From sequence record AP012539: a stretch of 57,849 nt of DNA. The stretch is one strand, 5' to 3'. A program made the position numbers. This stretch comes from Stx2-converting phage Stx2a_WGPS6. This document shows, piece after piece, positions 18,001 to 21,000 of this stretch; position 1 is the first letter of the stretch, and each line of letters opens with the position of its first letter.

Positions 18001-21000
18001 TTATGCGATGGGTTATGAGGATGGGCGTGACAAAACGGTAATTGCAGTAATGAAAGCTATCAGAGCCGCTGGAATTAAAGAGAAGAATTTTCGATGAAGC
18101 AAACAATCTTCCTCCGAACTAAGCAACAACAGCAAGCTGCAATAAATGCCATCCTCGCAACACCACTCGATAAAGACAAGCCAGTCACCATCCGCATTAC
18201 TGACTACAAGCGCAACCTTGACCAGAACGCAAAATTTCACGCGATGCTGGCGGATATCGCTCGTCAGGTTCAATGGTGCGGCAAATGGTTAAAACCAGAA
18301 CAATGGAAGGTTTTGTTGATCAGCGGTCATGCAGTGGCAACAAAGCAGGAAGCTGATGTTTTGCCCGGGCTTGAAGGCGAATACGTCAACATTCGCGAAA
18401 GCAGCGCGCAGATGAGTGTGAAGCGTATGGCAAGTCTGATTGAGTACACGACAGCATGGGCTATTGGTCAGGGTGTCAGATTTACCGACAGGAGGTACGA
18501 ATGAGACGACAGCGACGAAGTATCACCGACATAATCTGTGAAAACTGCAAATACCTTCCAACGAAACGCTCCAGAAATAAACCCAAGCCAATCCCAAAAG
18601 AATCTGACGTAAAAACCTTCAACTACACGGCTCACCTGTGGGATATCCGGTGGCTAAGACATCGTGCGAGGAATACAAGGGGGTTGACGTGATGATTTAT
18701 CCGGGGCTATATTCCTCACACGCCAGCAAAATCTGGCGTCGGGATTGGCGTCCTGGATAGAGACCGCGACAGATACACGCCGCGAGCGTGTTTTTTATTG
18801 TCGTATGCACGCGCACATCTGAATTATGGTGGGCTGTGTGGGGGCGGAGAGATCCGCGCCGGTCGGTTTCCCGGTTACGCCAACCCTGCACAGTTCACCA
18901 CCAGACGATTGGCGTCGTCGGTGGTGAGTTATTAAGAAACCACTCGAGGGCGTCATTATGACAACTCAAATCTCTGTTGAAACTCTCTCCCCGATCACCC
19001 ATAACCAGATTCCTGTTATTACCACCGAACTTTTGGCGCAGTTGTACGGTGCTGAAGTTAAGAACATTCAAAATAACTACGCCAGAAATGCTGAGCGCTT
19101 TATTGAAGGAAAGCATTTTTTCAAAGTGGCTGGCGATGCCCTGAAAAATTTGCGGGTTACTTTAAGTAACTCACAAAATTTGCAACCATCTTTAAGAGGT
19201 TTGCAAATTTCCCCCAAAACTCGCTCCCTCATCCTCTGGACAGAACGAGGCGCAGCCCGTCACGCCAAAATGCTCGAAACCGATCAGGCTTGACGTTATA
19301 GGTTGTTACTTGTAGATTTATCTTCGTGAGGCGTCAGAACCTCTCTAAAGCGGACAAACCCAACCCCGATAGTGTTGGATTTTTTATGCCTGTCATTTTA
19401 TGGACGCATTGCGCGGTCATACCCCGAACAATGTCGGGAGGGCGACGAATACAACACCCGAAAGGGGAATGAGTCCGCGGTTCTTTAGGCCGTTCTGAAC
19501 CTCCCGACACCACAATCAGAAGTGGTAATTCAGAAAAAGCTAAAGGAGGTCGTTATGACCATGCAACTCGCCGTAGAATCCCTCGTCGTTGTTACTTACT
19601 CGAACATTCCCGTAATAACAACGGAGTTATTGGCAACACTATACAAAACAGAACAAAAGCATATACGGCAAAATTTCAAACGTAACGAATGTCGTTTTAT
19701 TGCAGGAAAACACTTCTTTAAAGTAAGTGGTAGTGAACTCGATGATTTGAGAACCTCTCAAAGAGGTTTGCAAATTTCCCCCAAAACTCGCTCCCTCATC
19801 CTCTGGACAGAACGAGGCGCAGCCCGTCATGCAAAAATGCTCGAAACCGATCAGGCGTGGGAGGTGTTCGAAAAACTGGAAGACTGCTATTTCAGCCAGT
19901 GCAAGAAAAATACTGGCAAACAAGAGAAGAGCACCAACGAGCTTTCCGCAAAAGAAGCAAACAGCCTTGTATGGTTATGGGATTATGCTAACCGCTCACA
20001 GGCATTATTCCGCGAACTGTATCCGGCGCTAAAACAAATTCAATCGAACTATTCCGGCAGATGCTACGACTACGGTCATGAGTTTTCGTATGTTATCGGA
20101 ATGGCGAGAGATGTTTTAATCAACCACACACGAGATGTTGATATTAATGAGCCAGACGGACCAACGAACCTTTCCGCATGGGTAAGGCTTAAGAACAAAG
20201 AGTTGCCGCCTTCACTGCATCGCTACTGACAATTGACAACTTAACAAACCCAGCTTCGGCTGGGTTTTTTATTACTGAATTTTCAATGTGAGAGGACATG
20301 ACAATGAATGAGCTGATAAATAGCAGTATCATCAAAATGACAAGCATTGAAATCGCTGAGTTAGTGGGAAGTCGTCCAGATAACGTAAAAATATCAATAG
20401 AGCGCCTGGCTAAATCTGGAGTTATTCAACTTCCTGCATTGCAGGTTTTCGAAAAAAAAATCAATAACTTAGGGCTGCTCCGTAGTGTCGAGGCTTACGT
20501 CTTCGAAGGCGAACAAGGTAAGCGCGATAGCATTATTGTCGTTGCCCAGTTGTCGCCGGAATTCACCGCTCGCCTTGTTGACCGCTGGCGAGAACTCGAA
20601 GGGGCAACCGCGAAAATACCACAAACCTTTTCTGAGGCATTGCGCCTTGCGGCCGACCTTGAAGACCAGAAGGCTGAACTGGAGAAACAGCTTGCTCTCG
20701 CAGCACCTAAAGTTGAGTTTGCCGATCGAGTTGGCGAGGCCAGCGGAATTTTGATTGGAAACTTTGCAAAGGTTGTTGGTATTGGTCCAAACAAACGGTT
20801 TGCGTGGATGCGCGATCACAAAATCCTTATTGCTTCAGGTGCCCGGCGCAATGTGCCAATGCAGGAATATATGGATCGCGGCTATTTCACAGTGAAAGAA
20901 ACAGCGGTCAATACAAATCACGGAATACAGATATCGTTCACCACAAAAATCACCGGGCGTGGTCAACAGTGGCTGACAAGAAAGCTGCTAGATAACGGAA

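Follow-up and report, generated by a model that had tools for sequence, protein, structure and literature searches.

A 3′ module of P22-type antirepressor genes, probably an interchangeable joint, occurs twice in an Stx2-converting phage

We analysed a stretch of 57,849 nucleotides from Stx2-converting phage Stx2a_WGPS6 (AP012539), referred to here as the window, which is ~99% identical to Stx2c phage 2851. In its nin region we identified an ORF6N-type gene, gene A (19555..20229, + strand; ‘antA’ in phage 2851), encoding 224 amino acids from an ATG preceded by AAGGAGG, in a reading frame that is open from a GTG at 19522. The protein matches Pfam families ORF6N (PF10543; 74.7 bits, cutoff 27.8) and P22_AR_C (PF10548; 103 bits, cutoff 22.4), the latter at residues 135-207 of the ORF. 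Its constant right neighbour is a roi homologue with a Rha-like N-terminus and a KilAC/ANT domain (20298..21029, + strand). Gene A is the same gene as that found upstream of roi in the nin region of Stx phages (H0107 of VT2-Sakai; antA of 2851 and Nil2), with which it shares the order NinE, ORF6N-P22_AR_C, terminator, roi, NinG. Unlike other Stx nin regions, the window has an additional truncated ORF6N copy and an sRNA-Xcc1-like element upstream, whereas the insertion sequence between antA and antB of phage 2851 is not present.

The second gene, gene B (46638..47561, + strand), encodes a P22-type antirepressor, Ant, of 307 amino acids from the ATG at 46638; its frame is open from 46515, and one annotation begins at 46557. 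It combines P22_AR_N (PF10547; 135.4 bits, cutoff 30.7) with P22_AR_C (83.5 bits, cutoff 22.4). Gene B belongs to a complete immI-like ‘ant moron’ cassette (45950..47615, + strand) between tail gene L (45224..45949, + strand) and tail gene K (JAB and NlpC/P60 domains; 47616..48353, + strand). The cassette stands in place of 35 nt of the cassette-free L/K junction, including the first 8 K codons, and provides K with a new ribosome-binding site and start codon.

The remainder of the cassette encodes a Mnt-like ribbon-helix-helix repressor (45966..46310, − strand; Pfam Arc, 72.9 bits) and an Arc-like repressor (46394..46567, + strand; Pfam Arc, 22.1 bits, cutoff 20.4). Divergent, overlapping promoter-like sites lie between these two genes, together with a 12-nt inverted repeat (46314..46351) that is a candidate operator. 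A 14-bp hairpin followed by a T-run (46575..46606, − strand) occupies the interval between arc and the ant start, where P22 and epsilon34 have the sar terminator. The cassette gave no Rfam match to the sar antisense RNA at the gathering threshold, and the promoter scan of the cassette found no Psar-like promoter. At the left edge, a terminator (45958..45981, + strand) overlaps the mnt 3′ end, an arrangement shared with P22 and epsilon34. In front of this terminator lies GGATTATG (45951-45958), a match to the interior of the segment shared by genes A and B (47312-47319).

Comparison of the window with itself by BLAST pairs 19915..20272 with 47247..47604 (359 aligned columns, 88.6% identity, E=2e-128). 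Both copies are on the same strand, in direct orientation, at an offset of 27,332. Copy A (19915..20272, + strand) comprises the last 104 codons of the nin-region ORF6N gene (P22_AR_C), the stop, an 18-nt 3′ UTR and the terminator; copy B (47247..47604, + strand), whose right neighbour is K, comprises the corresponding parts of the P22-type ant in the L/K cassette: its last 104 codons, stop, 3′ UTR and terminator. An earlier note, made from the sequence alone, had described a duplication of ~330 bp at 19942-20272 and 47273..47603, with the copies 27 kb apart. The duplication and the spacing hold, and the repeat is not low-complexity sequence. The repeat begins 27 bp further to the left, at 19915, and the partner, although the right segment, is displaced by one base: its true position is 47274..47604, where 291 of 331 bases are equal. 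The resulting 87.9% agrees with the identity of ~90%, with a perfect core of ~90 bp, that had been estimated.

The stop codons of both genes are in register (20229 and 47561). Identity is just 39% in the 18 nt 3′ of the stops and 100% in the 25 nt that close the segment (20248..20272 and 47580..47604), which contain CCCAGCTTCGGCTGGG plus T6, so the earlier reading that both copies end in the same terminator is borne out. Both hairpins score as intrinsic terminators with a 9-bp stem and a UUCG loop, and fold at -16.8 and -18.6 kcal/mol (z = -5.1 and -2.9). The predicted terminator 3′ of gene A (20246..20272, + strand; T6 after the loop and stem) ends 25 nt before roi; that 3′ of ant, a predicted t_ant homologue (47579..47604, + strand), ends 11 nt before the K start codon, and the epsilon34 record annotates a terminator at the homologous position. 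The terminator 24-mer has exactly two sites in the window, compared with 0 expected in 100 shuffles.

The ORF6N and P22_AR_N heads have no detectable similarity (BLASTP E=44); with the Pfam matches, this confirms that the N-terminal halves are unrelated, one of ORF6N and the other of P22 Ant type. Over their C-terminal 104 residues the two proteins are 89% identical. The dN/dS between the copies is 0.17, which points to purifying selection on both; we therefore take both to encode working domains. Searches of PDB sequences with both proteins returned no match below E=0.05, and an AlphaFold2 prediction for gene A (18-sequence alignment; mean pLDDT 40.7, pTM 0.29) is too low in confidence to interpret the fold. 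The secondary structure of this poor model hints at a helical C-terminal domain in gene A.

The differences between the copies (45 in 358 bp) are unevenly spread. The longest perfect run is a core of 91 bp (20078..20168, + strand, = 47410..47500), followed by one mismatch and then 32 matching bases, so that the core lies within a 124-bp patch broken by a single mismatch. Permuting the 45 differences over 358 bp produced a run of at least 91 bp in 0 of 20,000 cases (p<5e-5). The dS is 0.17 in this patch and 0.59 in the 5′ half of the shared segment, and the positions of the core differ in other alleles of the segment. Judged by this uneven identity profile alone, the pair in the window resembles two long-separated alleles on which a recent exchange of ~125-195 bp has been superimposed at the 3′ end. 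We also considered whether the two copies might be unusually similar for a pair within one genome, and rejected this: their identity (86.5%) is the median, at the 49th percentile, of all nin × L/K pairs.

Related phages also provide evidence of exchange. One contig (L061) has a single mismatch to the cassette of the window in ~1,370 bp upstream of the shared segment, is identical to copy A at 358 of 358 positions of the segment itself, and switches to the K flank directly after TTTTTTAT; we infer that the donor of this conversion tract was the nin copy. In PhiR12_1, the nin and L/K copies are 100% identical over 333 bp between unrelated flanks, and two further loci on one contig (L025 and L044) are 97.6% identical. 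A haplotype table of the segment contains patchwork alleles, which do not cluster strictly by locus (nin, L/K or P22) and share patches across loci, and some L/K copies bear a nin-type 3′ UTR. Together, these patterns show that sequence passes between the nin and L/K sites, through gene conversion or crossover, with the terminator as the right boundary.

Strong selection on the domain and terminator alone, through common descent or convergence and with no recombination between loci, could account for the low dN/dS and the perfectly conserved terminator. It fails, however, for 91 identical bases that include all synonymous sites and vary in other alleles, for the L/K copies with a nin-type 3′ UTR, and for perfect inter-locus matches of 333 and 358 bp with unrelated flanks. 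We consider this explanation very improbable.

The cassette itself is found at both sites. Three E. coli genomes (DEC5E, STEC346 and RM10410) carry it in the nin region, joined to roi, and in DEC5E and STEC346 80 bp of the shared segment are directly duplicated on either side of it. This arrangement would allow gene A to be a scar: the Mnt-Arc-Ant cassette would once have lain within the nin ORF6N gene and been excised when the 80-bp partial copy of the segment recombined with the full one, an excision that would restore an intact gene of type A. However, the ORF6N-P22_AR_C gene occurs at ~66 of 120 loci compared with 1 of the DEC5E type, and the ORF6N heads of the fusion diverge to as little as 59% amino-acid identity. 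Moreover, DEC5E has its ORF6N gene as a truncated pseudogene of the ORF6N-P22_AR_C architecture, implying that the fusion came before the cassette insertion. An origin of gene A by excision is thus unlikely.

A broader proposal is that the ant 3′ module serves as a portable handle that moves the cassette between nin and L/K, with concerted evolution of the copies, and that 27-kb deletions, and the metagenome contigs described below, are genuine. We entertain it because the left edge of the L/K cassette keeps 8-9 nt (GGATTATG) of the interrupted P22_AR_C, as in the DEC5E nin arrangement, and hold it as a tentative possibility only. If it were true, deletions in lysogens would turn the Stx phage into a stx-negative, Q-less remnant.

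The earlier note had also suggested that the repeat could mediate deletion of everything between the copies. The interval encodes NinG, Q, tRNAs, Stx A, terminase, capsid, portal, tape measure and L, and the direct orientation, 358-bp length and 91-bp perfect run offer enough uninterrupted identity for homologous recombination. RecA- or Red-mediated crossover of the direct copies would remove ~27.3 kb, from NinG to L and including Q and stx, leaving a dead, stx-negative remnant. A 27-kb stx deletion by this route is plausible from the layout of the repeat.

We searched for the junction that such a deletion would leave. A first search used the ORF6N head of the window, which is a minority allele, and divergent heads could escape megablast; a second used the common Sakai/PhiR12-like head, together with a gapped pattern tolerant of head alleles; 64 of the 65 nin-type loci contain the head block of this pattern. 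With the two head alleles as queries, 5,426 complete E. coli genomes yielded no junction; nor did 50,697 phage records, or IMG/VR with the gapped pattern. The sole matches are two short-read metagenome contigs at ~3x coverage (L132 and L133), which read ORF6N head, shared segment, K. L132 (2.9x) joins the nin left flank of PhiR12 to the L/K right flank of PhiR12 across a 333-bp perfect repeat, and both contigs could equally be mis-joins across that repeat in a PhiR12-like phage. Of the suggested deletion, then, the direct, recombination-capable repeat with stx inside the interval stands, and the 27-kb junction was not found in those genomes, phage records or IMG/VR, but in these two contigs alone.

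These results also bear on whether proneness to deletion is the main property of this direct-repeat pair, with crossover a recurrent route by which lysogens lose stx, Q, lysis, head and most tail genes. The geometry and perfect core of the copies, the recombination of the nin and L/K sites in relatives, and the exact order of modules in the two contigs speak for it. Against it are the empty searches of genomes, phage records and IMG/VR, the 2.9x contig, of the kind expected from a short-read mis-join, and the inability of the product to propagate as a phage. We regard a principal role of this kind as rather unlikely.

Given the analyses presented above, we propose, with a probability of roughly 0.85, that the repeat is a conserved 3′ module of P22-type ant genes (P22_AR_C plus the t_ant terminator) that acts as an interchangeable joint and is present twice here with different heads. 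In lambdoid and P22-like phages, different 5′ modules would be swapped at this module by homologous recombination. In copy A the module is joined to an ORF6N head and sits in the nin region, 5′ of roi; in copy B it is joined to a P22_AR_N head within a self-contained Mnt/Arc/Ant cassette inserted between L and K.

The distribution of the segment in other phages is consistent with this proposal. The 3′ 356 nt of the copy B ant plus terminator are 85.7% identical at the nucleotide level to P22 and 91.9% to epsilon34, and the ant 3′ segment is 91.3% identical to CUS-3; the CUS-3 record annotates a ‘boundary sequence’ (bsq) beside it. In a census of the contexts of 120 viral loci with the terminator 24-mer, the commonest (~66 loci) is NinE and ORF6N-P22_AR_C joined to Roi. 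The order L, Mnt, Arc and Ant joined to K accounts for ~12, 933W-orf12 joined to Roi, with the terminator alone, for 9, and P22 immI joined to the tailspike for ~6, with a few hybrids besides. A search with the 111-aa C-terminal query found further heads on the same tail, KilA-N and PF27202; its matches are all shorter than ~195 aa and mostly partial, and thus serve to list kinds of head and not to count them. Domain shuffling, as the earlier note termed it, is therefore right but understated, as modules are exchanged at the DNA level at a joint shared with P22, epsilon34 and CUS-3. Several E. coli genomes, as well as the ant of phage CP-1639, match copy A itself at 100% identity.

Such a joint might function as follows. 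The hairpins would stop transcripts from local promoters, either Pant or, upstream of A, a promoter under C4/isrK control; polymerase modified by N or Q would read past them into roi/Q or K. The C-terminal domain might give both proteins the same protein contact, for example for repressor binding or oligomerisation. We speculate that the two antirepressor-like proteins may share a target or co-assemble via the common domain, so that C4/isrK and Arc/Mnt inputs may converge on one induction switch.

The pair sits at a documented site of gene conversion between early and late regions, and trees or typing schemes based on ant/antA will therefore mislead. A perfect or near-perfect repeat of 330-360 bp at a distance of 27 kb is also a trap for short-read assembly of Stx prophages: false ‘stx-deleted’ contigs can arise from it, and we found two likely examples. 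If the deletions are real, they would represent a minor route of stx loss beside excision of the whole prophage.

The repeat is a standard mosaic joint of antirepressor genes, already covered by Pfam architectures, phage annotations and the ‘ant moron’ literature; for P22-like phages, Villafane et al. (2008, PMC2629481) portray this moron as a region in rapid genetic flux. Like P22 immI (mnt-arc-sar-ant-t_ant), the gene B cassette consists of a divergent Mnt-/Arc-like pair, an Ant with P22_AR_N and P22_AR_C, and t_ant, and both are independent units inserted within a late operon. The two differ in that the phage carrying the cassette is long-tailed and has it between the lambda-type tail genes L and K, whereas immI lies between genes 16 and 9 of a podovirus. 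In addition, the Ant head of gene B is just ~38% identical to that of P22 Ant, and the cassette, unlike immI, rewrites the K 5′ end and has no Rfam sar match. Morons were reportedly described by Juhala et al. in 2000.

The joint also resembles the ‘boundary sequences’ of lambdoid phages, a concept said to come from the HK620 genome paper, in being a short conserved stretch between unrelated modules that is a site of homologous exchange. Unlike those sequences, it is mostly coding, encompassing a whole protein domain, and occurs twice in one genome, so that it would drive intragenomic gene conversion. At the protein level, Iyer, Koonin and Aravind reportedly described domain-shuffled phage regulators in 2002 (KilA-N, Bro-N, ORF6N, P22AR-N/C and KilAC), in which the same C-terminal domain is combined with unrelated, presumably DNA-binding heads. 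The pair studied here is an instance of these regulators from which nothing essential differs; it is ordinary lambdoid mosaicism at an already known kind of joint.

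Comparison of the window with itself, which the earlier note had proposed as a check, recovered a direct repeat: 19915..20272 (copy A) and 47247..47604 (copy B) align on the same strand over 359 columns with 88.6% identity (E=2e-128). The note's segment of about 330 bp, present twice and 27 kb apart, is thereby confirmed. Its first interval, 19942..20272, stands; the offset between the copies is 27,332 bases, so its second interval was one base off and should read 47274..47604. With the register corrected, the identical bases number 291 of 331 (87.9%), and the perfect core, put at about 90 bp, measures 91 bp (20078..20168), followed by one mismatch and 32 further identical bases. 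The stop codons of the two host genes lie in register (20229 and 47561). The next 18 nt mostly differ (7/18 identical), and the 25 nt beyond them, which contain CCCAGCTTCGGCTGGG and a T-run, are identical, so that each copy does end in the same terminator. Both score as intrinsic terminators and fold into a 9-bp stem with a UUCG loop; the window contains the terminator 24-mer exactly twice, and shuffled versions of the window lack it.

The copies form the 3' ends of two genes with different heads. Gene A (19555..20229, from an ATG behind AAGGAGG; ORF open from 19522) encodes ORF6N and P22_AR_C, and gene B (46638..47561; ORF open from 46515) encodes P22_AR_N and P22_AR_C. As had been read from the sequence, the N-terminal halves (ORF6N versus P22 Ant-type) are unrelated, with no similarity between the heads (E=44); the last 104 residues of the proteins are 89% identical. 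Codon differences between the copies comprise 17 synonymous and 11 non-synonymous changes, and the resulting dN/dS of 0.17 indicates that purifying selection has kept both copies working. A protein search found KilA-N and PF27202 as further heads on the P22_AR_C tail. The shared domain may give proteins A and B a common protein contact.

Gene A ('antA' in phage 2851, H0107 in VT2-Sakai) is flanked by NinE on one side and by a roi homologue (Rha-like plus KilAC), then NinG, on the other. Directly upstream of the ORF6N genes, at 18707-18905, we identified plus-strand Rfam matches above gathering score to c4-a1b1 (18707-18759), isrK (18720-18796) and C4 antisense RNA (18822-18905). This stretch appears to be an RNA switch of the P1/P7-immI or Gifsy-1 isrK type, which controls an antirepressor gene in those systems. 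Because these RNAs lie just upstream, we infer that antisense RNA controls gene A and that its product is an antirepressor-like regulator, an arrangement comparable to isrK-orf45-anrP of Gifsy-1 (PMC4825925). A second, truncated ORF6N gene lies 5' of gene A (18958-19293, plus strand, 111 aa, domain only), and the two genes share a 115-bp block at 92% identity (19178-19292 and 19745-19859). The spacer between them holds an sRNA-Xcc1-like element (19433-19516, plus strand; Rfam, 73.5 bits), the window's other such element being at 2913-3001 (minus strand). As DEC5E has one ORF6N gene only at the matching place, about 500 bp look to have been inserted or duplicated here by unequal exchange between two ORF6N alleles. 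In phage 2851 (NC_049943.1 17291-18504, locus L002) an IS3-family element lies between antA and antB (roi); it is absent from the window, where the gap from gene A to roi is only 68 bp. Elsewhere in the window, an ALIL pseudoknot, an IS3-family frameshift signal (9583-9699, minus strand, 121 bits), implies an IS element near 9-10 kb.

Gene B belongs to a cassette of 1.67 kb that lies between the tail genes L and K. At its left edge is a terminator, which overlaps the end of an Mnt-like gene on the minus strand; next come divergent promoter-like sites and a 12-nt palindrome, then an Arc-like gene, a strong hairpin, ant and finally the shared terminator, 11 nt short of where K starts. The hairpin, a 32-bp palindrome that is nearly perfect (46575-46606, minus strand; -28 kcal/mol, z = -5.5) and has a T-run after it, separates arc from the start codon of ant, at the place that the sar terminator occupies in P22 and epsilon34; it has no Rfam sar match. 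Judged from sequence, gene B would be an Arc/Mnt-controlled antirepressor. Set against the cassette-free Stx2a_WGPS2, 35 nt, among them the first eight codons of K, have given way to the cassette, which supplies K with a new ribosome-binding site and start codon. In the stretch 47577-47620, the mechanically called K ORF begins at ATG 47577, within the terminator; the true start is the cassette-supplied ATG 47616 (MLYSNILAHARR), with its own CAGGAG ribosome-binding site, the start in cassette-free phages being MTQTESAILAHARR.

The nin and L/K sites, where copies A and B lie, recombine, and the terminator is the right boundary. The 86 aligned segment copies fall into 42 haplotypes in a clear patchwork: in the 5' half of copy B the allele is the one usual for the major nin type, and the nin-type 3' UTR recurs in several L/K copies. 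One L/K-site contig (L061) has 1 mismatch to the window across the ~1,370 bp of cassette that precede the shared segment, is identical to copy A throughout the segment (358/358), and returns to the K flank directly after TTTTTTAT. This appears to be A-to-B conversion over the entire segment in a near-identical phage, known from its L/K site alone. In PhiR12_1 (PV340549.1) the nin and L/K copies (~16120-16475 and ~40820-41175; L134/L135), a direct repeat ~25 kb apart, are 100% identical over 333 bp between unrelated flanks, and the two copies on another contig (L025 and L044) are 97.6% identical and have a rare variant in common. The window's own pair is no more than average as a whole (86.5% identity, the 49th percentile of 816 nin x L/K pairs). 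Its dS is uneven, falling from 0.59 in the 5' half to 0.17 in the 3' half, and its 91-bp run (permutation p<5e-5) covers positions that vary among other alleles; on these grounds we read the pair as a probable recent exchange of the 3' 125-195 bp over an older allele difference.

Three genomes contain in full a synthetic 'reciprocal' junction of Ant head, shared segment and roi. In O55:H7 DEC5E (phage JLK-2012), and likewise in STEC346, the nin region holds the entire cassette (window 45951..47604, 97.9% identical), with an ORF6N pseudogene that retains the first 80 bp of the shared segment on its left and roi on its right; RM10410 (Stx2d phage) has an orf12-like gene, Mnt and Ant joined through the segment to Roi. 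The left junction in DEC5E falls exactly at GGATTATGCC[C/A]ACCG, which occurs inside the shared segment (47312-47326 in B, 19980-19994 in A) and also at 45951-45965, directly after the L stop codon, where it forms the cassette's left edge. GGATTATG is present neither in the cassette-free L-K junction nor where the cassette's left terminator occurs in other settings (P22, epsilon34, RM10410), and is confined to L/K-type and DEC5E-type junctions. Either the L/K cassette may have been captured from a DEC5E-like nin arrangement, bringing a few bases of the interrupted domain, or its insertion at nin may have used GGATTATGCC[C/A]ACCG as microhomology.

Between the copies lie genes for NinG, a phosphatase, Q, three tRNAs, Stx A, a SASA/DUF6645 esterase, terminase, capsid-protease, portal, tape measure and L; 18000-42900 matches Stx2c phage 2851 with 98.9% identity over 96% of its length. 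Just 3' of the stx operon is a strong Rfam match to the sRNA STnc100 (24752-24963, plus strand, 154 bits). The portal-protein ORF (36106-38685) contains ~3.7 tandem copies of a 162-bp unit (37632-38237, plus strand, 77-91% identical) in a C-terminal extension past the Phage_portal domain (residues 54-382).

The earlier note had suggested that the repeat could mediate deletion of this interval, stx included. The direct repeat and the stx-spanning interval stood; the 27-kb deletion was not recovered. Were the direct copies to cross over, ~27.3 kb would be lost and ORF6N-P22_AR_C would end up joined to K. A synthetic junction with the window's head had no match at >=80% coverage in 5,426 genomes or in 50,697 phage records, a test weak by itself because ORF6N heads are diverse (down to 59% amino-acid identity). 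A gapped junction pattern, anchored on a linker block found in 64/65 nin-type loci, gave 0 matches in IMG/VR and two in the metagenome collection, contigs L132 (2,953 bp, coverage 2.9) and L133 (1,131 bp, coverage 3.05), each reading ORF6N head, shared segment, K. L132 as query matched none of the same genomes or phage records. Its left part is the PhiR12_1 nin left flank (2 mismatches in 700) and its right part the PhiR12_1 L/K right flank (4 in 320), joined across the 333-bp perfect repeat. At 3x coverage a de Bruijn assembler would yield such a join if the other two branches were unsampled, and since L132 can be explained in this way, neither contig is counted as evidence of deletion. PhiR12_1 offers the most suitable natural substrate for testing whether such deletion occurs, and its repeat is an evident hazard in short-read assembly. 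The 27.3-kb deletion is physically plausible from the repeat's arrangement, and is certainly not a common fixed outcome.

The hairpins may insulate roi/Q and K from transcripts begun at local promoters, and N- or Q-modified polymerase would be expected to read through them; in P22, late transcription reads through the ant moron (PMC2629481).

The shared segment is present in 1,117 of 5,426 complete E. coli genomes, in at most six places per genome. Scanning IMG/VR for the terminator 24-mer gave at least 120 loci, whose flanks were classed by tblastn. Among the matches listed, with a slash for the segment joint, at least ~66 loci read NinE > ORF6N-P22_AR_C / Roi (> NinG), at least 9 NinE > 933W-orf12 / Roi, lacking P22_AR_C, at least ~12 L > Mnt > (Arc) > Ant / K, and at least ~6 P22-type immI / tailspike. 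One-off hybrids were orf12 > Mnt > Ant / Roi, orf12 / tailspike, and ORF6N-P22_AR_C > Mnt > Arc > Ant-P22_AR_C / Roi; none of the matches listed read ORF6N-P22_AR_C / K. At least 19 listed environmental viral contigs, most of them one conserved family, have AT-rich flanks unrelated to ant and only the 24-mer CCCAGCTTCGGCTGGGTTTTTTAT in common (including L013, L017-L020, L029, L046, L051-L052, L060, L067, L070, L081, L097 and L114), so the hairpin alone does not mark an antirepressor gene. Across these arrangements the shared segment is a constant joint with variable partners.

The repeat is real but ordinary. The phage, genes, domains, moron and boundary-sequence idea are all already in the literature or databases; what is added is small, namely the clean cases of conversion and the microhomology at the edge of the cassette. 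By its matches the segment is the 3' end of ant plus t_ant. P22 ant has 85.7% nucleotide identity to it over 356 nt; epsilon34 has 91.9%, with a Rho-independent terminator annotated at the same spot; CUS-3 has 91.3%, with the 'boundary sequence' bsq1 annotated directly after ant; and 933W carries its last 70 bp only, between orf12/orf13 and roi. The epsilon34 genome paper terms this region the 'ant moron' and describes it as in rapid flux (PMC2629481).
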